Below, piece by piece: positions 28,166 through 45,278 of a stretch of DNA of 64,000 bases (positions are counted from its first letter, which is position 1; the number at the start of each line of letters is the position of its first letter). Source of the stretch: Bryobacterales bacterium (GTDB lineage: Bacteria > Acidobacteriota > Terriglobia > Bryobacterales > UBA6623). Made by a program: the position numbers and the translations under genes. The stretch is from NCBI GenBank assembly GCA_965116065.1, contig OZ220485.1, positions 5,040,347 through 5,104,346 on the forward strand, given 5' to 3'. Under the pieces are notes generated by a model. That model was not told the origin of the DNA. It was given only the letters and a program-made list of their open reading frames with translations, and did no database searches.

Positions 28166-29269
28166 ATGACACCCCAAAACTCGGTCGGAATCGCCGCTCT
28201 TGCCGCGAGAGGAGGCACCCTTGCCCGGAAACAGCATGTCGAGTACAGGAGTCTCCCTTCGAAGAGTATCCTGAACCGCTGCTCGAACCCGCGGATGCCG
28301 TTCCGGTGGACGGTGAATCCGTATCGGGGTTGCGAGATCGGGTGCCATTACTGCTACGCACCCTACACGCATGCATATCTCGGGCTTGACGATCCAGACG
28401 ACTTCCAGTCGCTGATCTTCTCGAAGGACAAGGCGAGGGAGATTCTGGAGGGGGAACTCCGGCGCGGAGTGGAGGGGCCGATTGCCGTGGGCACCGGTAC
28501 GGACCCGTACCAGCCGGCGGAGCGGAATTTCGAGACCACCAAGGGGATCCTCGAAGCACTCTCCCGGTTCTCCGGGCTCCAGATCGGCATCACGACGAAG
28601 TCAGACCTGATCCTGCGGGACCTCGACCTGCTGGGCAAGATCGCCACCCGGAACCAGCTGCATGTGAACATCACCGTCACCACCATGGACGAGAAACTCG
28701 CACGACTGCTGGAACCACTAGCCGTTAGACCCGACATGCGGATCGAAGCCATCCGTCAACTGCGATGGAGAGGGATCGACGCCGGTGTCTTCAGCGCTCC
28801 AGTACTGCCTCTTCTGACGGATACGATGGAGCTTCTCAGTGCCGTTGCCGAGCAGGCGAAGCGGGCCGATGCGGCGTATTGGACGGCCAACCCGCTGTTC
28901 CTGAAGGAATCGGCAAGGAAGCGCCTGATTCCCGTACTTGAGCAGCGGTTCCCGCGGATTGCCGATCGCTACAAGTCCCACTATCGTCGTGGTGCCTACG
29001 TAGCGCCGGACTATCGAGACTGGCTTCGCGCACGGGTGGAGACGATTCGCGGCAAGTACGGTCTGGCTGATACGATTCCGTTCGCTTCGGTCCCCGCGGA
29101 CAATGTCCATGGTCCGGCTCAAGGCAACCTCTTTGCCGGACTGGAGCCGGAGAGTCTGCCGACGCGGCGCGGGCCGACTACCGTACCGGCACCTGGCGGC
29201 GAAGTTCCCCATGTACGGGGCCGGGGCTACTTGAACCGACATCCGTCCCCCGTTCAGAGTGCGGCTTGA
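28166..29269 (+). CDS. radical SAM protein (SplB / COG1533-like)
   Basis: WTVNPYRGCEIGCHYCYA carries the CxxxCxxC cluster motif. Confidence 0.85.
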   Translation: MTPQNSVGIAALAARGGTLARKQHVEYRSLPSKSILNRCSNPRMPFRWTVNPYRGCEIGCHYCYAPYTHAYLGLDDPDDFQSLIFSKDKAREILEGELRRGVEGPIAVGTGTDPYQPAERNFETTKGILEALSRFSGLQIGITTKSDLILRDLDLLGKIATRNQLHVNITVTTMDEKLARLLEPLAVRPDMRIEAIRQLRWRGIDAGVFSAPVLPLLTDTMELLSAVAEQAKRADAAYWTANPLFLKESARKRLIPVLEQRFPRIADRYKSHYRRGAYVAPDYRDWLRARVETIRGKYGLADTIPFASVPADNVHGPAQGNLFAGLEPESLPTRRGPTTVPAPGGEVPHVRGRGYLNRHPSPVQSAA

Positions 29270-29330
29270 CTCAAGGACCGGACTTCCATGCCAACGGTTG
29301 CAGGCAGCCCGGAGCCGACTGACAACCAGT

Positions 29331-29402
29331 CTCGGAGTTCCGCACATGGGACTAATTCGGAACGTCACGCGGTGGGGTGGACTGCCGGGGTTGGCGAGGG
29401 AT
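29331..29402 (+). repeat. ~72-nt dispersed repeat, copy 1
   Basis: ctcggagttccgcacatgggactaattcggaacgtcacgcggtggggt...ggcgagggat. It matches the reverse complement of 55611-55682 at roughly 85% identity. Confidence 0.7.
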
Positions 29403-29778
29403 GCGGGGTCCGTTCTGGGTGCTGGGCCGACAGTCGTGGACCCGTCGCGAAGCGGTGCCCGGCTACCGGCAGACTACCCGCGCGGTTTGAAGGCCCGCGC
29501 GGTTCCATCGCCGACCATCGTTGGCGAGGGGGAGGGTGGTACAGGGTGTGGGCCTGTGCACGATGCTTCAGAAACGACTCAATATACTGAAAATAAACAT
29601 GTTAACATATCTTCATGCCTGATTCTTACTCCCTGTGGTGAGATATCCGGGCTATGTCGTTTCCGCAGTGCTTGGTGTGTCCAAGCGCCAACTTCGTCGA
29701 CCAACGGTTACCATCATGATAGGATCCAGTCGAATCGTCGTAGCGACGATACTCTTCCATGGAAGGAGGAAGACAGCG

Positions 29779-30039
29779 ATGGCGGAAGTACTCAAGACAG
29801 AACGAACGTTCCTGAGAGACAACCTGCACGAACTTCGGGACCAGTATCCAGGAAACTACCTGCTGATCAAGGGCGAAAAGGTCTATGGCTATTACGAGAC
29901 TCGAGATCAAGGAGTCGAGGTCGGAATCAGCCTGTTCGGTCGTGGTCCGTTTCTGGTCGGCTCGGTGAGCGATCCCGAGCCGGACCCAGTCGTTGTCCCT
30001 GCCTTGATCGCAGGTGTGCCTTTCGGTGGCAGTCCTTAA
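29779..30039 (+). CDS. DUF5678-like small protein
   Basis: ATG 29779 follows ggagga. The pattern LRDQYPGNYLLIKGEKVYGYYETRDQ is DUF5678-like. Confidence 0.45.
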   Translation: MAEVLKTERTFLRDNLHELRDQYPGNYLLIKGEKVYGYYETRDQGVEVGISLFGRGPFLVGSVSDPEPDPVVVPALIAGVPFGGSP

Positions 30040-30481
30040 CGTCAAGATAGAAGTCAGGGACCGACAGGAGAATGTCGTCAACGTTCCGGCGGGACTGGGA
30101 TTACAGCGACTCGGACCGATCGTTAGCGTAGGCATCTCGCCACCACGGACCGCACGGACCGGCCAAGACTCGGCCATGGCGGGACGAGCCCTGATCGATA
30201 CTGGTGCCAGCGTCACCTGTGTGGACCGGGATGCAGCAGAGCGGGCCGGACTAGCGATAGCTGGCGAGGCGCGGATGGCGTCCGCTACTCATGAGTCTGA
30301 GATGGTGCCTCGATACGATGGGACACTTCAGATCGATGGCTTTGGAAGCGTCACCCTGAGAGGGGCATACGGTGCCAATCTGAAGACACACGGACTCATT
30401 GCGTTGATCGGACGGGACTTGCTGGCGTCTTGCGTCCTGATTGTCAATGGCCCTGACGGAACAGTTACGCTGACCCGCTAA
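30014..30481 (+). CDS. retropepsin-like (clan AA) aspartic protease
   Basis: ALIDTGASVTCVD is the D-T-G-A active site, and IALIGRDLL is also present. The start is GTG 30014 or 30026 and overlaps the upstream gene. Confidence 0.7.
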   Translation: MCLSVAVLNVKIEVRDRQENVVNVPAGLGLQRLGPIVSVGISPPRTARTGQDSAMAGRALIDTGASVTCVDRDAAERAGLAIAGEARMASATHESEMVPRYDGTLQIDGFGSVTLRGAYGANLKTHGLIALIGRDLLASCVLIVNGPDGTVTLTR

Positions 30482-31486: not shown

Positions 31487-34400
31487 ATGAGGATCGTTCC
31501 GAACACCGGCACCGTTCGGGTGGTCGATATCGTCCGCCCCTGGCTCAGGGGTGGCAATCGGGTCGATCTCGCGTCCCGAACGTTGTCGCTCTTTGCTTTC
31601 GGTGAGCTTGCCGGAGATCTTGCCCGCCTGGACGGCGCGCGGCTCGTCCTGCCGTCTGACGAGGCCGAGTTCGACTTCCTAGGATCCGTCGTGGACCGCG
31701 CCGCCCGCAATCGACTTCAGGCCCGCTGGCTCGCCGGACATTGCACGAAATGGATCGAGAGGGTGGCTGAGGTGCGCAGGGCAAACGGGGCCGTTCCACA
31801 GGGGGCGATCGTGCTGCGCAACCGTGACGATCATGCGAGGCAGGCCCTGATCGGTTCATTCTCATTCAGTACAGACGGGCTCGGCCTCGCACCGGGTAAT
31901 CCGCTCAACCTGATTCAGGCGTCCGAAGCCCCTGAAGAGGGCGAACGGCTGGGCGAGTGGTTTGACGCGCAGTGGTGTGGACTAACGGAAGGCGACGCCG
32001 CAAAATCAGACTTGATTGCGGCATTGCGCGGCATCGCCGCGCACCGCGCTCCTTTCGCCATCTACTCATTGATCCTGCATCACATCTTGCGGATTGATGG
32101 AGGTGAACTCGACGAGGAGACGGTCGTCAATTCGTCGACCGGAATCCGTGAGACGGAAGTCTGGAAGAGGCTGTTCAAGTTCCAGCGTGACGGGGTCGTC
32201 GGTGCCATAGACAAGCTCGCGCGGTTCGGCGGTTGCATCATTGCCGACAGTGTGGGACTCGGGAAGACATTCGAGGCTCTTGCGATCATCAAGTACCACG
32301 AGCTTCGGAACGACCGTGTTCTCGTGCTCTGTCCGAAGCGCCTGCGCGACAACTGGACCCTGTACCGGGCGAACGATCGCCGCAACATTCTTGCCCGAGA
32401 CCGCTTCAACTACGACATTCTCAATCACACCGATCTGTCCCGCGACGCTGGCCGATCTGGCGATATCGACCTCGCCCATGTGAACTGGGGCAACTACGAT
32501 CTCGTGGTGATCGACGAATCGCACAACTTCCGCAACAAGCGGTCGCCCCGACAGGGTGGTCAGACGCGCTACGACCGGCTCATGCACCGAATCGTCCAAG
32601 ACGGCGTGAAGACGCGGGTCCTGATGCTGTCGGCCACTCCGGTAAACAACCGGCTGGCCGACCTACGCAACCAGATCGCCTTCGCTACTGAAGGAGACGA
32701 CACGGCGCTGGAGAGTCACGGCGTTACCAGCATCGACGGCACCACGCAGCGGGCGCAGAAGCAGTTCAACCGCTGGCTGGATCTGGACGATGCCGAACGT
32801 ACTCCGTCCCGACTCATCGACATGCTGGGGTTCGATTACTTCACGCTGCTGGACCGACTTACCATCGCCCGCTCCCGTCGTCATCTGGAAAAATACTACG
32901 GAGACAGCGACACTGTCCGCTTCCCGGAGCGGCTGAAGCCCATCAATGTGAAGCCGGATGTCGATCTTGCGGGCGACTTTCCCTCGGTTCGCGACGTCAA
33001 TACGGAGATCCGTCGGCTGAATCTCGCCGCCTATGCGCCACTGCGCTATGTTCTGCGGCACAAGGAGGCAAAGTACGACGAGAAATACAGCACTCAGCTT
33101 CGTGGCGGAGGTGGAACGTTCCGGCAACTGGACCGCGAGAAGAGTCTTATCCAACTTCTGCGCGTGAACGCGCTGAAGCGCATGGAGAGTTCGGTCGCCT
33201 CTTTCGCACTGACCGTGAAGCGCCAGCTGGCCGATGTCGAGGCTCTGCTTGCCCGCATCGAGACACAACCGGACGAACTGGAGGATATCGACATCACCGA
33301 TGTCGATATCGAGGACCCGGCCTTCGAAGGCCTTCTGGTCGGCCACAAGGTCAAGGTTCTGCTCCAGGATGTCGATCCGATCCGCTGGCGGCAGGATCTG
33401 ATCGAGGATCGGAACCGGCTGACAACACTGCATGCCGCGGCCAACCAGGTGACCGTCGAACGCGATGCCAAGCTGGCCGAACTGCGATCAATGATCGAGC
33501 GGAAGTTCCATGACCCGATCAACGCCGAGAACCGCAAGGTCATAGTGTTCACGGCGTTCGCGGACACAGCACGTTACCTGTACGACGCGCTGGCACCCTG
33601 GGCGCGGGATTCCATCGGACTGCAAACCGCCCTGGTCACGGGGGTCGGGGCCAACCAGACAACCCTGCCGGAGCTACGACGCGACCTCGCTTCCATCCTG
33701 ACCGCCTTCGCGCCCCGCACCAAGGAACGGCCGGACAGCCTTGCGGGCGAAGGAGAGATCGATCTTCTGATCGCGACCGACTGCATCTCCGAAGGCCAGA
33801 ACCTTCAGGACTGCGACTGGCTCGTGAACTATGACATCCATTGGAACCCGGTACGGATCATCCAGCATTTCGGCCGAATCGACCGGATCGGCTCACCCAA
33901 CGAGCGCATCCAACTCGTCAACTTCTGGCCCAACATGGAGCTGGAAGAATATCTCCGTCTGGAACAGCGCGTGAGCGGCCGTATGGTTCTTCTCGACATT
34001 TCCGCAACCGGCGAAGAAAACCTGATCGAGCAGCAGTCGGGGGATCCGATGAACGATCTGGCTTACCGGCGCAAACAACTCCTGAACCTACAGGACGCAG
34101 TGATCGACCTGGATGACCTTTCTTCCGGAGTCTCCATTACCGATCTGACGCTGACTGATTTTCGGATCGACCTGGCAGAGTATCGCAGGGCCAATCCAGA
34201 GCCGCTCGATTCGGTGCCGCTCGGGATGCACGCAGTCGTCATCGCGGCGGACACTGAGATCCCTGTCGGCGCGATTTTCTGTCTGCGAGCCGAAGGCACG
34301 GCCGCAGATACCCAGTTCCACCCAGGCTATCCTCTGGCTCCACACTATCTGGTGCATGTCGGCGAGGATGGCACCGTGCTCCTGCCGTTCACTCAGGGGA

Positions 34401-34684
34401 AGGCCGTCCTTGACCGACTCAGGCGGCTTTGTGTTGGCAAGGAGATGCCCGACGCTCTGGCCTGTCGCCGTTTCGATCACGCTACTCGTCAGGGGCAGGA
34501 CATGCGCGCCGTACAACAGCAACTCGCCGCCGCTGTAGCCGCCATTGTCGGAACGGACGAGGAGCGTGCCGTCTCCAGCCTCTTTTCACCGGGGGGAACG
34601 CACGCCATATCCGGCGAGTTTCTAGGAGTAGACGATTTCGAGGTGGTGGCGTTTGTCGTGGTGCTGACAGGTGATGCGGCATGA
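31487..34684 (+). CDS. SNF2-family helicase with a degenerate PLD/HKD-like N-terminal domain
   Basis: Helicase motifs ADSVGLGKTFEA, VIDESHNFRN, LMLSATPVNN and QHFGRIDRIGS. The N-terminus has ...PQGAIVL...LIGSFSFSTDGLG..., which is PLD-like but lacks HxK. Confidence 0.9.
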   Translation: MRIVPNTGTVRVVDIVRPWLRGGNRVDLASRTLSLFAFGELAGDLARLDGARLVLPSDEAEFDFLGSVVDRAARNRLQARWLAGHCTKWIERVAEVRRANGAVPQGAIVLRNRDDHARQALIGSFSFSTDGLGLAPGNPLNLIQASEAPEEGERLGEWFDAQWCGLTEGDAAKSDLIAALRGIAAHRAPFAIYSLILHHILRIDGGELDEETVVNSSTGIRETEVWKRLFKFQRDGVVGAIDKLARFGGCIIADSVGLGKTFEALAIIKYHELRNDRVLVLCPKRLRDNWTLYRANDRRNILARDRFNYDILNHTDLSRDAGRSGDIDLAHVNWGNYDLVVIDESHNFRNKRSPRQGGQTRYDRLMHRIVQDGVKTRVLMLSATPVNNRLADLRNQIAFATEGDDTALESHGVTSIDGTTQRAQKQFNRWLDLDDAERTPSRLIDMLGFDYFTLLDRLTIARSRRHLEKYYGDSDTVRFPERLKPINVKPDVDLAGDFPSVRDVNTEIRRLNLAAYAPLRYVLRHKEAKYDEKYSTQLRGGGGTFRQLDREKSLIQLLRVNALKRMESSVASFALTVKRQLADVEALLARIETQPDELEDIDITDVDIEDPAFEGLLVGHKVKVLLQDVDPIRWRQDLIEDRNRLTTLHAAANQVTVERDAKLAELRSMIERKFHDPINAENRKVIVFTAFADTARYLYDALAPWARDSIGLQTALVTGVGANQTTLPELRRDLASILTAFAPRTKERPDSLAGEGEIDLLIATDCISEGQNLQDCDWLVNYDIHWNPVRIIQHFGRIDRIGSPNERIQLVNFWPNMELEEYLRLEQRVSGRMVLLDISATGEENLIEQQSGDPMNDLAYRRKQLLNLQDAVIDLDDLSSGVSITDLTLTDFRIDLAEYRRANPEPLDSVPLGMHAVVIAADTEIPVGAIFCLRAEGTAADTQFHPGYPLAPHYLVHVGEDGTVLLPFTQGKAVLDRLRRLCVGKEMPDALACRRFDHATRQGQDMRAVQQQLAAAVAAIVGTDEERAVSSLFSPGGTHAISGEFLGVDDFEVVAFVVVLTGDAA

Positions 34685-35406
34685 CGACATTTGATCCGCT
34701 CACAGCCCTCGCCCTCCCCTCCGGTGCGCTCGTCGACCGCCGCGTTCCCAAGAAGCTACTCATCGAGAACGGCACGTTTGCAGCGGGTGACCAGCGGCAC
34801 ATCCGGGAGGGAGTCGAGAAGTCGAGATGGGTTGCCGCACTCAAGCCGTCCACCGCCGGGATCGCCGAATATCGCGATGCCGAGCGCGAGTACATCGAGA
34901 TTGCGGTTCTGACCCTCAGACTGGGACCGGACGCCAAGAGCGAACGCCTTGTCGAACTGGTCCACCGCGCCATCCCCTATCCGGTACTCCTGATTGCCTG
35001 GCGGCAGGAGGTTCCGGAAATCTCACTGGCGCACAAGCGGCGCTCACTGGGCGGGGCCGACAAGACCGTCATCGACGGCGATATTGTCGGCGCTCGACTC
35101 GGCGACGACTGCCCTGCCGAACCGCTGGCGGCGTTTCGCAGGGCCCTCGCCCTGGAGCGGCAGCCCCACGGAACGCTCAGGGACTTGTACCAAGGCTGGA
35201 TCAACACGATCCATACGCTCCGCGCGACCATGATTACGGGGGAATTCCGCCTTCCGACCACGGCAGCGGCAGCCTCGGCAAGAGAAGCGACGTTGCGGGA
35301 ATACCGGCGACTCAGCGAGAGGATCAAGACGATACGATCCGGCGCAGGCAAGACGAAACAGATGGCTCGTCGGGCCGAACTGGACGCAGCACGGGGCAGA
35401 CTGTGA
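34681..35406 (+). CDS. DUF4391-domain protein
   Basis: ATGA overlap with the SNF2 stop. The pattern RRVPKKLLIENG...EYIEIAVLTL...HRAIPYPVLLIA...SLAHKR matches DUF4391 as I recall it. Confidence 0.7.
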   Translation: MTTFDPLTALALPSGALVDRRVPKKLLIENGTFAAGDQRHIREGVEKSRWVAALKPSTAGIAEYRDAEREYIEIAVLTLRLGPDAKSERLVELVHRAIPYPVLLIAWRQEVPEISLAHKRRSLGGADKTVIDGDIVGARLGDDCPAEPLAAFRRALALERQPHGTLRDLYQGWINTIHTLRATMITGEFRLPTTAAAASAREATLREYRRLSERIKTIRSGAGKTKQMARRAELDAARGRL

Positions 35407-35420
35407 AAGAGAGACGCATC

Positions 35421-37334
35421 ATGCAGAAGATCAGCGCGGGGGACCCGGAAACCCGCTCCGCCGACATCGTTGCCGAGAACGTTGAGCAGCTGAAGGCGCT
35501 GTTTCCTGAAGCAGTCACCGAAGGCAAGGTGGATTTTGAAGTGCTCCGTCAACTTCTCGGCGATGAAGTGGACGATGGTGAAGAGAAGTACGGACTCAAT
35601 TGGCATGGCAAGCGCCGCGCAAGGCGGCTGGCATTGACGCCGTCGATCGGGACCCTGCGCCCGTGCCCCGAGGACAGCGTTGATTGGGATACGACGCAGA
35701 ACTTGATGATTGAGGGCGACAACTTGGAGGTTCTGAAGCTCTTGCAGAAGAGCTACTCTGGAAAGGTCAAGTTGATTTACATTGACCCACCTTACAATAC
35801 GGGAAAGGACTTTATTTATTCGGACAATTATCAGGACAATATTCGGAGTTATTTAGAGATTACGAGGCAGACCGACGATCATAATTTGAAACTCTCTTCA
35901 AACGTCGAATCATCGGGTCGATTCCACACAAACTGGCTGAATATGATGTATCCACGGCTATTTATTGCTCGAAATCTCCTGTCGTCAGATGGAGCCATTT
36001 TTATGACCATAGGAGATGAAGAATGCGCGAATCTAATTCAGATTTGCAAGGACATTTTTGGGGAAGAGAACTTCTATGCGCATGTAATTTGGCAGAAAAA
36101 GTATGCAGTATCACAAGATGATCCTAGGATTGCCTCAATGCACGATCATATAATTGTGTTTTCCAAGAGCAGTAAGTTCAAGAGAAGCCTACTCCCGAGA
36201 ACCGAAAAACAAAAAAGTAGATACAAGAATCCTGACAACGACCATCGAGGCCCTTGGTCTGCGGACAACTACATCAGCAATAAGTCCAAAGATGAAAGAC
36301 CTACGCTTTGGTATCCTATTGTTCATCCGAAGACGAAAGCAGATGTGTGGCCGAAAGAATCGTCTGTTTGGCGTTATTCGAAAGAAAAACATGAACATAT
36401 TGAATCACAGAATCGGTTATATTGGGGGCCAAATCTGAACTATGATCGTCCGCGAATCAAGAAATTCTTGAATGAAGTGCAAGATGGAGTTGTTCCATCT
36501 ACATGGTGGCCATTTGCTGAAGTTGGACATAATGATGAAGCTCAGAAGGAGGCAGGAGATCTCGTCGGAGCGAAGGTATTTTCAACACCTAAGCCTCTTC
36601 GACTGATGGAAAGAGTGCTCGATATTGCCAGTGAACCAAACAGCTTAGTGATGGATTTCTTTGCAGGTTCTGGCAGTTTTGGGCACGCAGTGTTTCGAAA
36701 GAACAGTATCGATTTGGGGAACCGTCGTTTCATTATTGTTCAACTACCTGAGCCTCTCTTTCTCGAAGATGCTAACCAGAGAATAGCCGCTGCATTTTGC
36801 GATAGATTTGGTCGCCCTAGGAACATCGCTGAGGCAACCAAAGAGCGTCTTCACCGAGCATCAAGAAAAATAAAAGGCGAACGAAAACAATCGGAAAGCG
36901 ATCTCGGTTTCCGTGTCTTTAAGCTCGACACTTCCAACATCCGTCCTTGGGATCTGCAGCCGGATGACCTAGAAGGAGCACTACTTTCCGGGTTGGACCA
37001 TATCGTGGAGGGGCGAACCGAGCAGGACATCCTCTATGAGCTGCTCCTGAAGCTGGGCCTTGATCTCTGCGCACCCATCGAGACCCAGACCGTCGCGGGC
37101 AAGTCCGTGCACTCCGTCGGGGCGGGCACGCTGATTGCCTGCCTTGATGAATCCATTTCACGCAAAGAAATCGAACCGCTGGCGCTTGGTATCGCCGACT
37201 GGTATGAGTCGCTCGTACCTGCGGGCGAGTCCACCGTCGTCTTCCGCGACAGTGCCTTTGCCGACGATGTCGCCAAGGCGAACCTTGCCAAGACACTCAA
37301 GCAATGCGGTCTCCGCGACATGCGAAGCCTGTGA
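35421..37334 (+). CDS. mod: Type III restriction-modification methyltransferase (beta-class N6-adenine, Mod)
   Basis: Start MQKISAG at ATG 35421. Motif IV LIYIDPPYNTG precedes motif I DFFAGSGSFGHA. The 835-aa track ORF is an upstream out-of-gene extension. Confidence 0.9.
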   Translation: MQKISAGDPETRSADIVAENVEQLKALFPEAVTEGKVDFEVLRQLLGDEVDDGEEKYGLNWHGKRRARRLALTPSIGTLRPCPEDSVDWDTTQNLMIEGDNLEVLKLLQKSYSGKVKLIYIDPPYNTGKDFIYSDNYQDNIRSYLEITRQTDDHNLKLSSNVESSGRFHTNWLNMMYPRLFIARNLLSSDGAIFMTIGDEECANLIQICKDIFGEENFYAHVIWQKKYAVSQDDPRIASMHDHIIVFSKSSKFKRSLLPRTEKQKSRYKNPDNDHRGPWSADNYISNKSKDERPTLWYPIVHPKTKADVWPKESSVWRYSKEKHEHIESQNRLYWGPNLNYDRPRIKKFLNEVQDGVVPSTWWPFAEVGHNDEAQKEAGDLVGAKVFSTPKPLRLMERVLDIASEPNSLVMDFFAGSGSFGHAVFRKNSIDLGNRRFIIVQLPEPLFLEDANQRIAAAFCDRFGRPRNIAEATKERLHRASRKIKGERKQSESDLGFRVFKLDTSNIRPWDLQPDDLEGALLSGLDHIVEGRTEQDILYELLLKLGLDLCAPIETQTVAGKSVHSVGAGTLIACLDESISRKEIEPLALGIADWYESLVPAGESTVVFRDSAFADDVAKANLAKTLKQCGLRDMRSL

Positions 37335-37362
37335 CAGTGAAGGGTTGGGATCTGACCTATTC

Positions 37363-37617
37363 ATGAACCGGCAGGAGCGACTATTGCAGACTGGCCTGTG
37401 GGGACGGTCTGTCGCGAACATCCGGCTCTTGGATTGGCGAGCCCTGATGGCGTATCTGGTTTTCGAAGAGCGCGTACGCGCCAGCCATCACCTCTTCGAC
37501 CGAGAGGGCGTGGTGGAGATCGTCAACCTGCAGAGCCGCGGCGGTCACGTCAAACCCTTTCAGTTGAAGCAGGTCCGGCAGTTGATTCTGAGATATAGTC
37601 TGGGAAGAGACGACTGA
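37363..37617 (+). CDS. hicA: HicA-family toxin (tentative)
   Basis: The 84-aa protein has ...RASHHLFDREGVVEIVNLQSRGGHVKPFQLKQVRQLI..., which resembles the HicA SH(H/R)xF...core. It sits immediately 5' of hicB with a TGATG overlap. Confidence 0.5.
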   Translation: MNRQERLLQTGLWGRSVANIRLLDWRALMAYLVFEERVRASHHLFDREGVVEIVNLQSRGGHVKPFQLKQVRQLILRYSLGRDD

Positions 37618-37874
37618 TGCACAAGTACGAGATCATTCTCTACTGGAGCAACGAAGACCAAGCGTTCATTGCCGAGGCTCCCGAGTTGCCCGGCTGCATT
37701 GCACACGGAGACGATCAGGAGACCGTATTGCGCAATATCAAGGACGCCATGAGTTTCTGGATAGAACGAGCACAGGATCTGGGACGGACCGTCCCGCAGC
37801 CGAAGGGCGAGCGCATGATGCTTGCCTGTCGGCATGGGCGAGGAACACAGGCGAGAGGCACTCTTGCAAGATGA
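37617..37874 (+). CDS. hicB: HicB-family antitoxin (short, UPF0150 type)
   Basis: YEIILYWSNEDQAFIAEAPELPGCIAHGDDQETVLRNIKDAMSFWIERAQDLGRTVPQP is the classic HicB N-domain. Confidence 0.8.
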   Translation: MHKYEIILYWSNEDQAFIAEAPELPGCIAHGDDQETVLRNIKDAMSFWIERAQDLGRTVPQPKGERMMLACRHGRGTQARGTLAR

Positions 37875-40837
37875 AACTCCGTTTCGAACCTGACCTCGAT
37901 TTTCAGTTGCAGGCGGTAGACGCCGTTTGTGACCTGTTCCGCGGTCAGGAGGTCTGCCGGACGGAGTTCACGGTTATCCGGGACCAGCAAGAATCGTATG
38001 TCTTTACTGAGGACACTCTCGGCGTCGGCAACCGTCTGACATTGCTCAACGAAGAGATCCTGAAGAACCTCAACGACATTCAACTCCGCAACGGCCTGCC
38101 GCCGTCCTCGTCTCTTAACTCTGGCGACTTCACAGTGGAGATGGAGACCGGCACTGGTAAGACCTATGTCTATCTGCGCACGATCTTCGAGCTGAATGAG
38201 CGCTACGGTTTCACCAAGTTCGTCATTGTCGTCCCATCGATCGCAATCAAGGAAGGTGTCTACAAGTCGCTCCAGATCACCGATGGTCATTTCCGCACCC
38301 TCTATTCGGGCACGCCGTTCGAGTACTTCCTCTACGACTCGGCAAAGCTCGGCCAAGTGCGCAATTTTGCCACGAGTCCCCAGATCCAGATCATGGTCGT
38401 AACGGTCGGTGCCATCAACAAGAAGGACGTCAATAACCTCTACAAGGATAGCGAGAAGATGGGCGGCGAAAAGCCGATCGACCTAATCAGAGCCACCAAG
38501 CCGATCCTGATCGTGGACGAACCGCAGAGCGTGGACGGCGGCTTGAAGGGGCAGGGCAAGCAAGCCCTTGGTGCGATGGATCCGCTATGCACGCTGCGCT
38601 ATTCAGCGACGCATGTCGACAAGCACCACATGGTCTACCGACTGGATGCCGTCGATGCCTACGAGCGAAAGCTCGTCAAACAGATCGAGGTGGCATCGGC
38701 GACTGTCAAGGACGCCCACAATCGACCTTATGTCCGGCTCATCTCGACGAGCAACAGACGGGGTGACATCAGCGCGAAGGTTGAACTCGCTATCGAGAGC
38801 GCTGGTAAAGTACGTCGAGTCGAACGGGTAGTTCGAGATGGCGACGATCTCGAGCAGACGACAGGGCGCAAGATCTATCGCGACTGCCACATCGGCGAGA
38901 TCAGGACCGGAAGAGGAAGTGCATTTGTTGAACTCCGAGTGCCAGCCGACGAGATCTTCCTTCAGGAAGGCGAAGCTTGGGGTGATGTGGACAGCACCGC
39001 CGTTGAGCGCCAGATGATCCGGCGCACCATTCGCGAGCATCTGGACAAGGAGATGCTCCTGCGCCCACAGGGAATCAAGGTGCTGAGCCTCTTCTTCATC
39101 AAAGCGGTCGATCGCTACCGCCGCTATGACGACAACGGGAACGCGGTCAAGGGAGACTATGCCCTCCTGTTCGAGGAAGAGTACCGGCGGCTCGCGCGAC
39201 ATCCGGACTATCGGTCGCTGTTCGGAGAAGTGGATCTCACTGCGACAGCCGAGGATGCCCACGACGGTTATTTCTCGATCGACAGGAGAGGCGGTTGGAC
39301 GGACACCCCCGAGAAGAACCAGGGCGACAATGCGGCGCGCGCCTACAACCTGATCATGAAGGAGAAGGAGAAGCTGCTCAGCCTTGATGAACCACTCAAG
39401 TTCATCTTCTCCCATTCGGCACTGCGCGAGGGGTGGGACAATCCCAATGTCTTCCAAATTTGTGCCCTGCGTGACATTCAGACGGAGCGCGAGAGACGTC
39501 AGACAATCGGGCGAGGGCTGCGCCTTTGCGTGAACCAGGATGGTGAACGCCTGCGCGGATTCGAATTGAACACCCTGACCGTGGTCGCCAGAGAAAGCTA
39601 TGAGGAGTTCGCCGAGGGACTCCAGCGGGAAATCGAGAAGGACTCCGGAATCCGCTTTGGTGTCGTCGAACCACACCAGTTTGCACAGATTCCGGTGTCC
39701 AGCAGTGAAGAGGAAACGAGAGTTCTCGGATTTGACAGGTCGCAGATCCTGTACGATCATCTTCGGCAGAACCGGTATATCGACGACCGTGGACGAATAC
39801 AGGACTCTCTCCGCAAGGCGGTCCGGGACGACACGCTTGCGCTGCCCGACGGATTTGGTGCGCAACGGGCGGAAATCACCGCCATGTTGCAAAAGCTCGT
39901 TGGGCGCTTCGAAATCAAGGACGCCGATGAACGCCAGACCGTCCGCCCCCGCCAAGCGGTACTCGACAGCGCGGAATTCAAGGCTTTGTGGGACCGTATC
40001 AAATACAAGACCGTCTACCGTGTGAACTTTGACAACGAAGCCCTGCTGGAGCAGTCGGCGACGGCGTTACGAAATGCCCCGACGATTCCCCGGACACGGC
40101 TGCAATGGCACACGGCGGGCTTGGCTATCGGACAGTCGGGGGTGGAGGCGACCGAAATCGCGGAATCGGGTCCTGTCGTTCTCGAAGAAACCGATATCGA
40201 GCTGCCGGATCTGCTAACCGAGCTGCAGGACCGGACGCAACTCACCCGGCGCAGCATCTATAGCATCCTTGTCCGTAGTCAACGTCTCGACGACTTCAGG
40301 CGCAATCCGCAGCAGTTCATCAAGACTGCCGCAGATGTCATCGATCGCTGCAAGCGACATGCACTGGTGGACGGCATCAAGTACCGGCGGGTGGGAGAAG
40401 ACTCGTACTTCGCTCAGGAGCTCTTCGAGAAGAAGGAACTCACCGGATATCTCCGGAATATGCTCGCGGTCAAGAAATCGGTTCACGAACAGGTCGTCTA
40501 CGAATCCAACACGGAACGCCGCTTCGCAACAGATCTGGAGAAGAATGATGCCGTCAAGGTCTACGCCAAGCTTCCCGGCTGGTTCACGGTGCCGACACCG
40601 CTCGGGAGTTACAACCCCGACTGGGCCATACTTTTCGACACGGATGAAGGCGAACGGCTCTATCTCGTCGTCGAGACGAAAGCGAGCATTCTGCAAGACG
40701 ATTTACGGCCGATGGAAGCCGACAAGATCGAATGCGCCAAGGCACACTTCGATGCCTTGGCAATCGTCGACAACCCCGCCAGATACGAAACTGCTTCCAG
40801 TGTCAGTCAATTGATCGAAGGATGTGCCGCAGACTGA
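37871..40837 (+). CDS. res: Type III restriction endonuclease Res subunit (helicase plus PD-(D/E)xK nuclease)
   Basis: METGTGKTYVY (Walker A) and LIVDEPQSV (DEPQ box). The C-terminal PDWAILFD...LVVETKAS is the nuclease motif. ATGA overlap with the hicB stop. Confidence 0.9.
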   Translation: MKLRFEPDLDFQLQAVDAVCDLFRGQEVCRTEFTVIRDQQESYVFTEDTLGVGNRLTLLNEEILKNLNDIQLRNGLPPSSSLNSGDFTVEMETGTGKTYVYLRTIFELNERYGFTKFVIVVPSIAIKEGVYKSLQITDGHFRTLYSGTPFEYFLYDSAKLGQVRNFATSPQIQIMVVTVGAINKKDVNNLYKDSEKMGGEKPIDLIRATKPILIVDEPQSVDGGLKGQGKQALGAMDPLCTLRYSATHVDKHHMVYRLDAVDAYERKLVKQIEVASATVKDAHNRPYVRLISTSNRRGDISAKVELAIESAGKVRRVERVVRDGDDLEQTTGRKIYRDCHIGEIRTGRGSAFVELRVPADEIFLQEGEAWGDVDSTAVERQMIRRTIREHLDKEMLLRPQGIKVLSLFFIKAVDRYRRYDDNGNAVKGDYALLFEEEYRRLARHPDYRSLFGEVDLTATAEDAHDGYFSIDRRGGWTDTPEKNQGDNAARAYNLIMKEKEKLLSLDEPLKFIFSHSALREGWDNPNVFQICALRDIQTERERRQTIGRGLRLCVNQDGERLRGFELNTLTVVARESYEEFAEGLQREIEKDSGIRFGVVEPHQFAQIPVSSSEEETRVLGFDRSQILYDHLRQNRYIDDRGRIQDSLRKAVRDDTLALPDGFGAQRAEITAMLQKLVGRFEIKDADERQTVRPRQAVLDSAEFKALWDRIKYKTVYRVNFDNEALLEQSATALRNAPTIPRTRLQWHTAGLAIGQSGVEATEIAESGPVVLEETDIELPDLLTELQDRTQLTRRSIYSILVRSQRLDDFRRNPQQFIKTAADVIDRCKRHALVDGIKYRRVGEDSYFAQELFEKKELTGYLRNMLAVKKSVHEQVVYESNTERRFATDLEKNDAVKVYAKLPGWFTVPTPLGSYNPDWAILFDTDEGERLYLVVETKASILQDDLRPMEADKIECAKAHFDALAIVDNPARYETASSVSQLIEGCAAD

Positions 40838-43133: not shown

Positions 43134-43988
43134 TTGTCGGAGTGCCTCGCAGCAATGCCTTGGTTCCGACGGGAGCACGAGCCCAAGCGGGTCCGCACGG
43201 AAGGTCTCTGGATCAAGTGCGATTCCTGTTCCACACCCATCTGGAAGAAGGATCTCGACGCGCAGGGAATGGTCTGCGGGAAGTGCGACTTCCATTTCAA
43301 GATCACGGCCCGGCAGCGACTGGACATGCTCTTCGATGACGGGGAATGGGATGAAATCTGCGGGGACCTGCGTTCCACGAACGCTCTGCACTTCGAGGAT
43401 CGCAAACCCTACGAGGATCGGCTCCGCGACGCCAAGCAGCGGACCGGACTCAACGACGCCGTGATCTGCGCGCGGGGAAAGCTCGAAGACCACGATGTGG
43501 TGATCGGTGCCATGGAATACGGTTTCATTGGTGGAAGCATGGGAGCCGTTGTCGGGGAGAAGCTCACGCGGGCCGCTGAACAGGCCCTCCGCGAGCGGAT
43601 GCCGCTCATCATCGTGTCCGCGTCCGGCGGCGCCCGCATGATGGAAGGCATGGTCAGCCTCGTGCAGATGGCGAAGGTCTCGGCGGCCCTGAAGAAGTTG
43701 GACCGCGCCAGGCTTCCGTACATCAGTGTCCTGACAGACCCGACGACAGGAGGGGTAACCGCCAGCTTCGCCATGCTCGGGGACCTGAATATCGCCGAGC
43801 CCGGAGCATTGATCGGATTCGCAGGACCACGGGTCATCGAACAGACGATCCGCCAGAAGCTGCCCAAGGGCTTCCAACGGTCAGAATTCCTCCTCAAGCA
43901 CGGCATGCTGGACGCCGTCGTCACACGCTCGGAACTCAAGCCGTTCATCGGCAACGCTCTCGAGTTCTTCCGTGGCCCAGCGGCCTAG
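43134..43988 (+). CDS. accD: acetyl-CoA carboxylase carboxyltransferase beta subunit
   Basis: Zn-ribbon CDSCSTPIWKKDL...VCGKCDFH followed by the carboxyltransferase domain. The start could be 43155 (MPWFRRE). Confidence 0.9.
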   Translation: MSECLAAMPWFRREHEPKRVRTEGLWIKCDSCSTPIWKKDLDAQGMVCGKCDFHFKITARQRLDMLFDDGEWDEICGDLRSTNALHFEDRKPYEDRLRDAKQRTGLNDAVICARGKLEDHDVVIGAMEYGFIGGSMGAVVGEKLTRAAEQALRERMPLIIVSASGGARMMEGMVSLVQMAKVSAALKKLDRARLPYISVLTDPTTGGVTASFAMLGDLNIAEPGALIGFAGPRVIEQTIRQKLPKGFQRSEFLLKHGMLDAVVTRSELKPFIGNALEFFRGPAA

Positions 43989-43994
43989 GCGCGC

Positions 43995-45278
43995 ATGGAA
44001 CCACTCGACCCGTCTGTCCGGTACCTCCATTCCCTGCCCGGCTCCCTCTCCAGGAAGTCCTTCGGCCTCCAGCGCATGCGACGACTGGTACGGGCGTTGG
44101 GCTCTCCCGAGCGGGCGCGGGGGATCATCCACGTGGCCGGTACGAACGGCAAGGGATCCACTTCCGCCATGATCGAGTCTGGACTCCGGGCGGCGGGCCA
44201 CTCGACGGGCTTGTACACATCACCGCACCTGGCCCGCATCCACGAGCGTTTTCTGCTGAATGGGCATCCGGTTTCCGACGCAGCGCTGGCGAAGGCCGTC
44301 GAGGCGGTCCGCAGGGCGAACGAACACATTGTCGAAATCCACGACAGGGCGACCCACCCAACGTTCTTCGAGTCCGCCACCGCGGTTGCGTTGGTGCTGT
44401 TCGAACAGGCGGATGCCGACTTCCGGATCGTGGAAACCGGTCTCGGGGGTCGGCTGGATGCCAGCAACGTCGTGGCCCCCGAACTGGTCGTCTTCACGCA
44501 TATCGACCACGATCACGAACGGTTCCTCGGCAGACGGCTGGAGCAGATTGCGAGCGAGAAGGGAGCAATCGCCAAGCGCGGCTGCCGCGCCGTGATCGGG
44601 ACCCAGGCCCCCGCGGCCCACAGCGTTCTGTTCCGATGCTGCCAGGAGGCGGGCGCGAGGATCCATGACGTGGAGAACGACTGGGAGGTCCGAAACGCCA
44701 CCAGCCGGTCCGGGCGATGGCGTTTCGACGCGGTCGGCCCGGCCGGAGCGGTTTCCGTTCAGCTCAGGCTCGCGGGCCGACATCAGGTCGACAACGCCCT
44801 CACGGCCGTAGCAGCCCTTGACGCCCTCGGAATTCCGGCCCGCCACATCGAAGAGGGCCTGCGCCGGGTCCGATGGCCCGGCCGCCTTGAGTTCGCCGGG
44901 ACACCGGCGCGATTCCTGCTGGATGCCGCGCACAACCCGGAGGGAGCTCGGGCCCTGGCCGAGTTCGTGGACCGGGAAGCACAGGGGCGCGACGTGGCCC
45001 TCGTGTACGGGTCTTCACGAGACAAGGCCATCGATGAAATCGCGGGCTGGATGTTCCCGGTCGCGGATCATGTGGTCCTGACGCGCTCCAGGGTGGAGAG
45101 GTCGGTGAGTCCCCGTGGACTCCTGGCCGCGGTGGGCCACCACCACCAGTGCATCGAGACGGCGCCCGATGTAGGTGCCGCCCTGGACCTGGCGGCCAGC
45201 CGGGTGGACGCAGGGGGCTGGATCGTCGTGGCAGGTTCCATCTTTCTCGTGGGAGAAGCGCGGGAACTGGTCGGATAG
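43995..45278 (+). CDS. folC: bifunctional folylpolyglutamate synthase / dihydrofolate synthase
   Basis: HVAGTNGKGSTSAM P-loop with a Mur-ligase layout. It follows accD as in many bacteria. Confidence 0.9.
   Translation: MEPLDPSVRYLHSLPGSLSRKSFGLQRMRRLVRALGSPERARGIIHVAGTNGKGSTSAMIESGLRAAGHSTGLYTSPHLARIHERFLLNGHPVSDAALAKAVEAVRRANEHIVEIHDRATHPTFFESATAVALVLFEQADADFRIVETGLGGRLDASNVVAPELVVFTHIDHDHERFLGRRLEQIASEKGAIAKRGCRAVIGTQAPAAHSVLFRCCQEAGARIHDVENDWEVRNATSRSGRWRFDAVGPAGAVSVQLRLAGRHQVDNALTAVAALDALGIPARHIEEGLRRVRWPGRLEFAGTPARFLLDAAHNPEGARALAEFVDREAQGRDVALVYGSSRDKAIDEIAGWMFPVADHVVLTRSRVERSVSPRGLLAAVGHHHQCIETAPDVGAALDLAASRVDAGGWIVVAGSIFLVGEARELVG

Follow-up and report, generated by a model that had tools for sequence, protein, structure and literature searches.

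In a 64,000-nucleotide stretch of the genome of a Bryobacterales bacterium (hereafter the window), we found an intact copy of a widespread four-gene putative defence cassette encoding an SNF2-family ATPase with a pseudo-PLD domain, a DUF4391 protein and the Mod and Res proteins, with HicAB embedded as cargo. For fifty years, Type III restriction has been regarded as a two-protein system. The Mod/Res part of the cassette is already known as Type III; the SNF2-DUF4391 cassette is widespread and without prior characterisation in the literature searched. The original prediction had described an extended module of six genes, whereas the comparison of related loci indicates that the conserved unit comprises four genes only: SNF2, DUF4391, Mod and Res, in this order.

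Composition of the locus

Six co-directional and closely spaced genes were read from the open reading frames between positions 31487 and 40837 of the window. The sequence has ATGA overlaps at 34681 and 37871 and a TGATG overlap at 37617, and the remaining gaps are of 14 and 28 nt; coordinates and junctions were thus as originally described. The features are the following:

31487 to 34684, + strand: SNF2-family ATPase, 1065 aa (Pfam SNF2-rel_dom and Helicase_C)
31487 to 32101, + strand: predicted pseudo-PLD domain at the SNF2 N-terminus, about aa 1-205 (AF2 and Foldseek)
34681 to 35406, + strand: DUF4391 protein, 241 aa (PF14335, 6e-53)
35421 to 37334, + strand: Type III Mod, 637 aa (PADLOC MTase_III, 4e-221; PF01555)
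36093 to 36545, + strand: hypervariable target-recognition region of Mod, about aa 225-375 (column conservation)
37363 to 37617, + strand: HicA-like toxin, 84 aa (homologues match PF07927)
37617 to 37874, + strand: short HicB antitoxin, 85 aa (PF15919, 2e-9)
37871 to 40837, + strand: Type III Res, 988 aa (PADLOC REase_III, E = 0; PF19778)

Sequences identical to the SNF2, DUF4391, Res and 84-aa HicA-like proteins are called as genes in the public source record (four of four looked up). A promoter and terminator scan of the operon returned sites no more numerous than in shuffled sequence, and no conserved upstream controller gene was recognisable within the window.

By sequence, Mod and Res are genuine subunits of a Type III restriction-modification enzyme, with the catalytic motifs complete in both. 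Mod carries the catalytic DPPY motif and the AdoMet motif FAGSG in its translation, in the arrangement IV...TRD...I, and matches in the PDB the Mod of H. pylori (6k0w, 1e-74) and that of EcoP15I (9e-56); it is a putative beta-class N6-adenine DNA methyltransferase that would also set the specificity. Its reading frame is open upstream to 34827, and the ATG at 35421 was taken as the start, since a purine-rich stretch precedes it and it agrees with the homologues. Among 40 intact loci, the conservation of the recognition region is 0.30-0.37 vs 0.75-0.96 in the catalytic parts, and a trough in G+C content (42% at 35900-36500 vs ∼60% in the flanks) coincides with this region. Res has the motifs TGTGKT, DEPQ, SAT, QTIGRGLRL and PD...ETK, and matches REase_III and NCBIfam PRK15483 (6e-105) over its full length, as well as ResIII, the RE_endonuc profile PF19778 (1e-33) and the Res of EcoP15I (4zcf_C, 1e-66). 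It is an ATPase of the SF2 helicase-like type that ends in a PD-(D/E)xK endonuclease.

The SNF2 protein has a pseudo-PLD domain at its N-terminus, the motor core at about aa 230-830 and, beyond this, an uncharacterised C-terminal region. The motifs GLGKT, DESH, SAT and QHFGRIDRIG, named in the original prediction, are present in its translation. The nearest solved relative is RapA, with a weak match (3e-9), and the top PADLOC match is C3a139 'HKD+Snf2' (6e-108, aa 215-1059). We rejected the latter as a named system, since it denotes a cluster of gene neighbours compiled in a survey of genes accessory to type III CRISPR. The degenerate PLD-like N-terminus that had been proposed gave no match to the Pfam PLDc or PLDc_2 profiles; however, its fold is supported by an AF2 model (pLDDT 81), for which Foldseek returned, with a probability of 1.0, SauUSI (3e-6), FAM83/BJ-TSA-9, Zucchini, NucT, TrmBL2, NgoAVII, BfiI and Tdp1. 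The catalytic signature HxK(x)4D...GSxN is absent from this N-terminus, which reads PQGAIVLRN...GSFSFS instead. Gln105 occupies the position of the catalytic His and is invariant in relatives down to 20% identity, while position 107, the site of the catalytic Lys, is variable. Because an invariant Gln replaces the catalytic His, the modelled domain appears to be a pseudo-nuclease without the catalytic HxK, and it probably serves dimerisation or DNA binding.

The second protein matches PF14335 with 180.6 bits vs a gathering threshold of 29.9, over profile positions 1-222 of 232, which upholds its assignment to DUF4391. The start of its gene overlaps the end of the SNF2 gene by ATGA, and the two are translationally coupled. 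The protein is basic (pI 10.0) and has no catalytic signature; its N-terminal domain is alpha/beta, and its C-terminal part is helical or coiled. Its AF2 model (pLDDT 90.9, pTM 0.88), searched whole and not split into domains, found no match in the PDB (best E 0.013, TM at most 0.23), nor in the predicted viral protein structures of BFVD. Moreover, no sequence relatives were found in the PDB, PADLOC and NCBIfam hold no DUF4391 model, the family was not found in phage records and a contig search with the window's own DUF4391 returned no match. The family comprises 952 clusters at 50% identity. A literature search on DUF4391 gave nothing relevant, only a mention in an enrichment table and an apparent misprint for DUF7941.

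Conservation and cargo of the cassette

We compared 88 related loci, drawn from one archaeon and from bacteria of many phyla; 80 fetched loci were found with a narrower alignment, which biases the set towards relatives of at least 45% identity. As had been anticipated, the SNF2 and DUF4391 genes co-occur with mod and res across genomes: SNF2 lies upstream of DUF4391 in 63 of the 65 evaluable loci, and Mod and Res lie downstream in 51 of 55. The 4-nt overlap between SNF2 and DUF4391 is present in most loci, and the gap between DUF4391 and Mod is at most 100 nt in 69/83. Over 40 intact loci, the four genes have diverged in parallel (r = 0.94 for SNF2-DUF4391, 0.92 for SNF2-Res and 0.91 for DUF4391-Res).

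SNF2 and DUF4391 hardly ever occur without each other or without this clade of Mod/Res. In the 88 loci and ∼20 annotated records, we saw no pair beside another partner system, the exceptions being decayed cassettes. Candidate alternative partners downstream of DUF4391, in loci without Mod/Res, turned out to be truncated cassettes followed by genes on the opposite strand. Distant SNF2 relatives (28-30% identity) on plasmids of Planktothrix and Halalkalicoccus belong to other two-gene arrangements without DUF4391. A Thiodictyon plasmid carries a Mod-RhuM-Res locus whose Res is of the same clade, without SNF2 and DUF4391. Some loci keep SNF2-DUF4391-Mod with Res truncated or interrupted by an IS, and in several Mod is split into two ORFs.

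The cassette is located in mobile elements and genomic islands. Annotated plasmid copies occur in Paraburkholderia, Shewanella, Providencia, Aeromonas, Lactiplantibacillus, Methanomethylovorans, Enterococcus, E. coli, Listeria and Lactococcus, and the SNF2 gene is present on plasmids of Listeria, Enterococcus, Lactococcus, Bacillus cereus and Acinetobacter; inspection of the annotation confirmed the full cassette in Listeria, Enterococcus, Lactococcus and E. coli. E. coli chromosomes, including that of CFT073, also carry it, and the SNF2-DUF4391 DNA of CFT073 has a match in 88 of 5426 complete E. coli genomes. In several loci the cassette is preceded by a regulator, either of the WYL/YafY type or a small HTH protein. 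We rejected a conserved upstream controller, as the upstream genes differ by locus (excisionase-like HTH, WYL/YafY regulators, VapC/PIN remnants).

The three internal junctions, Mod|Res above all, recurrently receive other defence genes. In the related loci they repeatedly hold co-directional genes for TIR, SIR2, ApeA-HEPN, GmrSD, Schlafen/AlbA_2, RhuM, YhcG, AAA_21, subtilase and PLD proteins, and of the 68 cargo ORFs that reach 150 aa or more, 65 run in the same direction as the cassette. Cargo lies between DUF4391 and Mod in 14/83 loci. This behaviour resembles that of the embedded candidates in Hma and of the PrrC or BrxU-type genes in Type I RM and BREX, where the junctions of methylase-helicase operons are likewise hot spots for the insertion of defence genes.

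HicAB is one of the many alternative insertions at Mod|Res and falls outside the conserved unit. The HicA-like protein (84 aa, pI 10.7) gave no Pfam match, even at E = 10, and sequence and profile searches of the PDB found no HicA. However, six of nine homologues at the same junction (37-74% identical) match PF07927 HicA_toxin (best 3.7e-5), the SHH motif is invariant and the order hicA-then-hicB fits HicAB. HicB, whose gene shares 1 nt with hicA and 4 nt with res, matches PF15919 with 37.9 bits vs a cutoff of 27 and the HicB-like PHROG 497 (4e-12); the assignments of Mod, HicB and Res given in the original prediction all stood. At 85 aa, covering positions 1-59 of 123 of PF15919, HicB lacks the C-terminal DNA-binding (RHH/HTH) domain. 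Homologues of ∼70 aa occupy the Mod|Res junction in 13 related loci.

Comparison with named defence systems

The only proteins that PADLOC models name are Mod and Res, both under Type III RM, and none of the named systems spans all the genes. Type III enzymes hemimethylate an asymmetric site, and their cleavage depends on ATP and on unmodified sites in inverse orientation. Like EcoP15I and EcoP1I (Mod2Res1), the locus encodes full-length homologues of Mod and Res; the motifs agree, mod comes before res, and the recognition domain varies. However, canonical Type III systems are without SNF2 and DUF4391, which are here conserved upstream, and have mod immediately before res, whereas hicA and hicB stand between them in the window and cargo often separates them elsewhere.

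The resemblance to class 1 DISARM, which had been proposed from the component list, is architectural only. Both contain an SNF2 ATPase and a further SF2 helicase, along with an N6-adenine methyltransferase and a domain of PLD fold, and DrmD models are the best named partial matches to the SNF2 protein. However, the DrmD equivalog NF038317 scores 148.6 bits vs a cutoff of 610, with partial coverage. DrmA and DrmB were also rejected: there is no DUF1998 match in the six proteins and no DrmA match on Res, a weak partial DrmA match being limited to the SNF2 C-lobe. DrmC is an active PLD nuclease, while the sole PLD fold here forms part of the SNF2 protein and has neither the catalytic His nor the catalytic Lys. 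Finally, the methylase of the cassette is a Type III Mod and its nuclease a PD-(D/E)xK Res.

A parallel in organization is MANTIS (Gao_RL), composed of MtsA (DUF499 AAA+), MtsB (DUF3870), MtsC (methyltransferase) and MtsD (PLD-SF2), in which the ATPase and the small DUF protein are needed to load and activate the methyltransferase, restriction requires all four proteins and asymmetric sites are hemimethylated in a Type III manner (bioRxiv 10.64898/2026.09.23.753747). The cassette shares with it a large ATPase, a small protein, a specificity-bearing adenine methyltransferase and a helicase-nuclease effector, in the same gene order. However, MtsA is an ORC/Cdc6-type AAA+ protein, and neither it nor MtsB is homologous to SNF2 or DUF4391; the effector nuclease is a PLD in MANTIS and the PD-(D/E)xK RE_endonuc of Res here. 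We did not retain the name, since Pfam finds no DUF499 or DUF3870 in the six proteins, only SNF2/Helicase_C and DUF4391 in their place. Hma was likewise rejected: the HmaA model matches only aa 564-803 of SNF2 (78 bits), and there is no HmaC-like gene. Hma consists of HmaA, with an active C-terminal PD-(D/E)xK nuclease, the methylase HmaB and the ATPase HmaC, with no Res.

The only experimental study that we found on an SNF2-mod/res arrangement concerns EcoR22I of E. coli ECOR22, where a DrmD-like SNF2 gene adjoins mod/res, mod and res alone restricted lambda-vir and gave Ocr-triggered death, and transposon hits fell in mod and res only (Silas et al., bioRxiv 10.1101/2023.04.06.535777). The claim that the arrangement is undescribed holds in so far as the literature searched contains no paper characterising it, and is qualified by this mention of SNF2 beside mod/res. 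EcoR22I is likened to the cassette by its published description: only mod and res were cloned, DUF4391 is unmentioned, and the Res residues D1024 and D1043 imply a longer Res than here. Neither ECOR22 nor EcoR22I was found among the E. coli matches listed. Lactococcal AbiRc, with a restriction-endonuclease-like N-terminus and an Snf2 ATPase, depends on the LlaKR2I methylase (PMC13064643). AbiR, also likened by description, thus has an SNF2 ATPase with an N-terminal nuclease-like domain in a methylase-dependent defence; its partners are sigma-factor-like and ParB-like proteins, vs DUF4391, Mod and Res here.

Proposed working of the cassette and its implications

With moderate confidence, we propose that Mod and Res both restrict and modify DNA in the Type III manner and that SNF2 and DUF4391 form an ATP-driven accessory complex, in an intact cassette with HicAB as cargo. 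Mod, probably as Mod2, would read a short asymmetric site and methylate one strand; it would then load Res, which would use ATP for long-range communication and cut unmodified DNA, as in EcoP15I. SNF2 and DUF4391 would bind each other, SNF2 being likely dimerised or held on DNA via its inactive PLD-like domain and the basic DUF4391 protein being a likely DNA binder or adaptor. Possible tasks of the complex are to load the enzyme, to recycle it or to gate methylation vs cleavage, a role that would be analogous to that of MtsA/MtsB in MANTIS and presumably of DrmD in DISARM. Because the PLD site is dead, the module would not be a second nuclease. HicAB would be read through from the operon and may act as a stabilising or back-up abortive module, outside the core mechanism.

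A stronger version, which we consider only tentatively, makes SNF2 (pseudo-PLD) and DUF4391 an obligatory ATP-driven control module of a four-component Type III machine, for example by loading or activating Mod on DNA and licensing Res, after the manner of MtsA/MtsB in MANTIS. DUF4391 would then be a new fold reading DNA or its modification state, and the cassette a distinct and widespread class of methylation-based immunity, as well as a scaffold for embedded defence genes.

The Mod-RhuM-Res locus of Thiodictyon, without SNF2 and DUF4391, and the sufficiency of mod and res in EcoR22I, given its likeness by description, speak against an accessory role; the presence of cargo between DUF4391 and Mod indicates, moreover, that tight coupling of these two is dispensable, and co-divergence can come from co-transfer alone. 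The Thiodictyon locus and the sufficiency of mod and res are also what would be expected if two independent systems travelled together, namely a self-sufficient Mod/Res and a separate SNF2-DUF4391 module for defence or DNA surveillance, with its own trigger and output, linked only by the clustering and co-transfer of defence genes. The cargo that can part DUF4391 from Mod fits this reading as well, and so does the evident tendency of the cassette to gather unrelated defence genes. We nevertheless regard it as unlikely: order, strand and spacing are fixed over a very wide phylogenetic distance, including the short DUF4391-Mod gap, and the pair was never seen beside another partner, decayed cassettes excepted. 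Moreover, SNF2 and DUF4391 have no recognisable effector, the PLD being dead and DUF4391 having no catalytic signature, and the distant SNF2 relatives that do have other partners are without DUF4391.

The sufficiency of mod and res against lambda-vir would also be accounted for if the pair served as an anti-anti-restriction or back-up function, sensing or removing Type III inhibitors (DNA mimics such as Ocr) or stripping shielding proteins, and mattered only against phages with counter-defence. SNF2 enzymes are remodellers of protein-DNA complexes, as the relationship to RapA recalls, RM loci with integrated back-up functions are known and an E. coli Type III system responds to Ocr. However, the Ocr response of ECOR22 was mapped to mod and res only and not to the SNF2 gene, and we give this explanation a low probability. 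Finally, an epigenetic or repair module, in which SNF2 and DUF4391 direct methylation by Mod for phasevarion-like gene regulation and Res is vestigial, is highly improbable: it would suit the loci with damaged Res and those with Mod as two ORFs, as in phase-variable mod genes, but an intact Res bearing all motifs is encoded here and in 51 of the 55 evaluable loci, and the mobile-element and island sites, the defence cargo and the hypervariable recognition domains are typical of restriction under phage pressure.

The accessory model that we favour concerns a large and phylogenetically very broad subset of Type III systems, with two extra conserved genes for a motor carrying a dead nuclease fold and for a protein without recognisable structural relative; at least 461 species-representative genomes, counted as matches to two DUF4391 peptide patterns, have a DUF4391 relative. 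Since its junctions collect TIR, SIR2, HEPN, GmrSD and other genes, the cassette is a practical bait for new defence genes. Should methylation or restriction prove to be under the control of the pair, the emerging group of dual-ATPase methylation-based defences, with DISARM, BREX and MANTIS, would gain a member, a function would be assigned to DUF4391, and the annotation in REBASE-style surveys, which now score such loci as plain Type III, would need to be changed.

Genes of the locus and their surroundings

The ORF listing and its translations gave the features below. We refer to SNF2, DUF4391, Mod and Res as the cassette and to the two small genes between Mod and Res as HicAB.

Features of the locus (window coordinates)
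26868-27968: asd, flank of the cassette
28166-30481, + strand: three overlapping co-directional ORFs upstream of the cassette
31487-34684, + strand: SNF2, 1065 aa
34681-35406, + strand: DUF4391, 241 aa
35421-37334, + strand: Mod, 637 aa
37363-37617, + strand: HicA-like gene, 84 aa
37617-37874, + strand: HicB, 85 aa
37871-40837, + strand: Res, 988 aa
41209-42705, + strand: DUF4338/DruA-like gene fused to an ISAs1-like transposase domain, 498 aa, directly 3' of res
43134-43988: accD, flank of the cassette
43995-45278: folC-like, flank of the cassette

The original prediction described six co-directional genes with ATGA overlaps at 34681 and 37871, a TGATG overlap at 37617 and gaps of 14 and 28 nt. 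The junctions, when read directly, agreed exactly, and all the helicase, methylase and nuclease motifs that it quoted were found in the translations. The four proteins looked up in the public source record (SNF2, DUF4391, Res and the 84-aa HicA-like protein) are all called genes there, with identical sequence.

Housekeeping genes lie on both sides of the cassette, no tRNA genes were found within the 64-kb window, and the G+C content over 28-42 kb is a few points lower than in the flanks. The N-terminus of the 498-aa ORF resembles DUF4338 and DruA of Druantia (PF14236, 2e-20), and its C-terminus DDE_Tnp_1-associated or ISAs1-family transposases (NF033564, 4e-17, under its cutoff). An inserted island may have its right edge at this ORF. 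The three upstream ORFs encode a radical-SAM protein (partial Rv2578c/PA0069 family match, under the cutoffs), a 263-aa protein without a family match and a 155-aa retropepsin-like aspartyl protease (PF13975, 3e-6), and possibly form another small operon on the same island.

Family assignments and the two extra proteins

In Pfam, Mod was assigned to N6_N4_Mtase, Res to ResIII and RE_endonuc, and the SNF2 protein to SNF2-rel_dom and Helicase_C. The PADLOC models recognised Mod (4e-221) and Res (E = 0) as Type III over their full length and gave no match for DUF4391, HicA or HicB. Among solved structures, Res matched EcoP15I Res (1e-66) and Mod matched Helicobacter Mod (1e-74) and EcoP15I Mod (9e-56), while the SNF2 protein matched RapA only, weakly. 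Judged by sequence, Mod and Res make up a complete Type III enzyme, and the SNF2 protein is a complete SNF2 ATPase. The best PADLOC match of the SNF2 protein, C3a139 'HKD+Snf2', covers residues 215-1059 only and was discarded as a characterised system, its label being taken from a list of type III CRISPR neighbour genes.

The SNF2 N-terminus had been read as a PLD fold lacking the HxK residues, and this was correct. A model of the first 229 residues, built with 53 homologues (pLDDT 81), matched PLD-superfamily structures with a Foldseek probability of 1.0 (SauUSI, the pseudo-PLD FAM83/BJ-TSA-9, Zucchini, NucT, TrmBL2, NgoAVII, BfiI and Tdp1). The PLD motif position reads PQGAIVLRN...GSFSFS. 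In the SNF2 relatives compared, an invariant Gln105 occupies the place of the catalytic His and the Lys position is variable, a pattern that holds in Lactiplantibacillus and archaeal relatives of 20-29% identity. The loss of HxK is a trait shared across the family of this SNF2 protein and, by comparison with other pseudo-PLD domains, points to a structural role, for instance in dimerisation or in contacting DNA.

The assignment of DUF4391 also held (Pfam, 6e-53). In its model, built with 146 homologues (pLDDT 90.9, pTM 0.88), the N-terminal part is an alpha/beta domain and the C-terminal part is made up of long helices. Foldseek searches of the PDB (best E 0.013, TM no higher than 0.23) and of BFVD gave no significant fold relatives, and a profile search of PDB sequences was empty. 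The protein is basic (pI 10.0), with invariant Arg21, Lys55, Glu73, His95-Arg96 and Lys119-Arg120 and a nearly invariant Lys24. At 50% identity, the family falls into 952 clusters.

Conservation, spread and cargo of the cassette

Plasmids were surveyed by tblastn with DUF4391, followed by inspection of the deposited annotation. The order 'helicase-related protein - DUF4391 - site-specific DNA-methyltransferase - DEAD/DEAH helicase (Res)' was seen in Beta- and Gammaproteobacteria, Bacillota and one methanogenic archaeon, and also on alphaproteobacterial (Acetobacter) and Thermodesulfobacteriota (Desulforapulum) plasmids, where Res is IS-interrupted or truncated. When a single genome per species was screened for two conserved DUF4391 peptides, 461 DUF4391-encoding genomes came up, and the best 80 of these loci span at least a dozen phyla. 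No phage records encode DUF4391. When the window proteins were compared by phmmer with all ORFs of 88 related loci, SNF2 lay upstream of DUF4391 in 63/65 loci whose contig reaches far enough, and Mod plus Res downstream in 51/55 evaluable loci, which upholds the proposed co-conservation of SNF2 and DUF4391 with mod/res. In the loci that break this pattern, the cassette is truncated and genes on the opposite strand follow. Most loci have the 4-nt SNF2/DUF4391 overlap.

Where all four genes are intact (40 loci), the correlation of pairwise-identity matrices is r = 0.94 for SNF2-DUF4391, 0.92 for SNF2-Res and 0.91 for DUF4391-Res. Correlations with Mod are lower (0.75-0.79) because its residues about 225-375 are hypervariable. 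In the window, a sharp G+C trough (35900-36500, 42% versus ~60% around) is confined to the Mod target-recognition region. Such a trough in a hypervariable segment is the pattern expected of a swapped target-recognition domain; the trough indicates that the specificity domain was recently replaced by lower-G+C DNA.

Variant Mod genes were also observed. Several related loci (L027, L031, L041, L073 and L080) have Mod split into two adjacent ORFs with Res intact. The split may reflect frameshifts, either from sequencing or in MAGs, or else phase variation of mod, which is known from other Type III systems. Two methyltransferase genes or fragments lie between DUF4391 and Res in loci L021, L045 and L094 (the last on Lactococcus plasmid pLLUL021B, 11255-14779), which suggests duplicated or exchanged Mod modules.

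The SNF2 subfamily occurs on 121 plasmids (108 at full length), including those of E. coli, Listeria, Enterococcus, Bacillus cereus, Lactococcus and Acinetobacter, and the whole cassette is present in the examples with inspected annotation. The SNF2-DUF4391 DNA of E. coli CFT073 was matched in 88 of 5426 complete E. coli genomes, on chromosomes and plasmids, and over at least 80% of its length in 54 of those 88. The copies inspected, in CFT073 and strain 720632, are full cassettes on genomic islands adjoining tRNA genes, with a WYL/YafY-type or small HTH regulator ahead. The CFT073 copy corresponds to C_RS25385-C_RS25365, and E. coli plasmid pLKJULY7989 also has the cassette. The comparisons show that SNF2, DUF4391 and this Mod/Res clade are passed on as a single unit, carried by mobile elements and found in defence contexts.

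Other genes were seen ahead of SNF2. In the CFT073 lineage, a 301-aa HTH regulator (L095:7997-8902) overlaps the SNF2 start; the annotation in strain GABEEC132 is 'YafY family protein'. Another gene was seen in the 100-500 nt ahead of SNF2 in L009, L010, L011, L013, L014, L016, L017, L018, L020 and L032. In these closest relatives, the SNF2 start is overlapped by an ORF that terminates 3 nt inside it and has the conserved C-terminus ...LAVVTRNTGEFRNTGVETVDPWT; fuller versions begin '...AWLIDTNVVSEMMRP...', and many copies look truncated. Read by eye, it looks like a PIN/VapC toxin. No counterpart was recognisable in the window.

Each of the three internal junctions is, across the 88 loci, either tight or insert-bearing. 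Spacings above 100 nt were found at SNF2|DUF4391 in 10/85 loci, at DUF4391|Mod in 14/83 and at Mod|Res in 44/72, with inserts of up to 5.9 kb. Of the inserted ORFs of at least 150 aa, 65/68 are co-directional with the cassette. Representatives scanned against Pfam gave Schlafen/AlbA_2 with HATPase_c_4, DUF4062 with HATPase_c_4 and HTH, RhuM, YhcG/DUF1016 PD-(D/E)xK, GmrSD_N, pentapeptide with FRG, an RNase H-like SF1 helicase, a 1520-aa protein with weak AAA ATPase matches, subtilase, TIR, ApeA-HEPN, SIR2, AAA_21 and PLDc_2.

The Mod|Res junction contains a homologue of HicA, of HicB or of both in 13 loci, and each of these is one of the window's closest relatives. HicB matches HicB_lk_antitox in Pfam. 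The window HicA-like protein has no Pfam match; 6/9 homologues from the same junction match HicA_toxin (best 3.7e-5), and an SHH motif is invariant among them all. We call the 84-aa protein HicA-like, not a proven HicA. The window HicB has the N-terminal domain only, without a DNA-binding tail, and overlaps both neighbours, so it is presumably expressed from the operon. HicAB counts as cargo, for which the cassette is the scaffold. The original prediction was right in substance but wrong on the unit: not six genes, but four conserved ones plus cargo, HicAB being absent from all plasmid and E. coli cassettes.

The E. coli genomes 0H15, 0H23, 0H24, 0H26 and PCP06171 (H204-H208) share one cassette variant, in which the annotation places an 'ATP-binding domain-containing protein' where the SNF2-DUF4391 query ends; this protein might be cargo adjoining DUF4391. 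The cassette cargo behaves like the genes embedded in Hma, and like those that Type I RM and BREX loci carry.

Relation to known systems and proposed working

The Mod/Res half of the cassette has the sequence-defined features of Type III RM, whereas the cassette as a whole departs from its two-gene definition. DISARM, MANTIS and Hma were each rejected on defining components. The parallel drawn earlier with class 1 DISARM stands as a loose analogy only; membership does not, since the SNF2 protein scores 149 bits against the NCBIfam DrmD equivalog (cutoff 610). MANTIS has an analogous architecture, but its first two components are unrelated. A lactococcal methylome survey, in its passages on Type III systems, counts these as M plus R and does not mention extra genes. 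No description of a function for DUF4391 or for the four-gene arrangement was found in the open-access papers and preprints searched.

In the proposed working, Mod would read an asymmetric site via its variable domain, methylate one strand and recruit Res, which would use ATP for long-range communication and cut unmodified DNA. As SNF2 and DUF4391 are translationally coupled, we infer that they form a complex, which would act as an accessory motor on the same DNA. It may load Mod/Res, recycle it, or govern how methylation and cleavage are balanced. By analogy, MANTIS/Gao_RL is the best precedent for this model: its large ATPase MtsA and small DUF protein MtsB are required for loading and stimulating the methyltransferase, and restriction requires all four proteins (bioRxiv 10.64898/2026.09.23.753747).

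We lean towards SNF2-DUF4391 being an accessory module with a functional coupling to Mod/Res; the remaining probability is shared by an independent system that travels along with them, a layer of anti-anti-restriction and a role outside defence. Against an obligatory role of the pair stands a Mod-RhuM-Res locus without SNF2 and DUF4391 (L090, Candidatus Thiodictyon syntrophicum plasmid pTs485, 7002-13009), whose Res belongs to the same clade (51% identity) and which could serve as a natural 'minus-accessory' comparator. It adjoins a cluster of four genes on the opposite strand, with the annotations DUF3375, DUF4194, ATP-binding protein and DUF3322, which resembles the Wadjet (JetABCD) system. 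EcoR22I, only a candidate member of the cassette family, also counts against an obligatory role: for this Type III system, described as associated with a DrmD-like SNF2 gene, Silas et al. report that mod and res suffice for restricting lambda-vir and for Ocr-triggered cell death, and transposon suppressors fell only in mod and res (bioRxiv 10.1101/2023.04.06.535777).

The cassette is a methylation-based, multi-ATPase restriction variant and, because it is very widespread and occurs in model organisms, it is readily testable.
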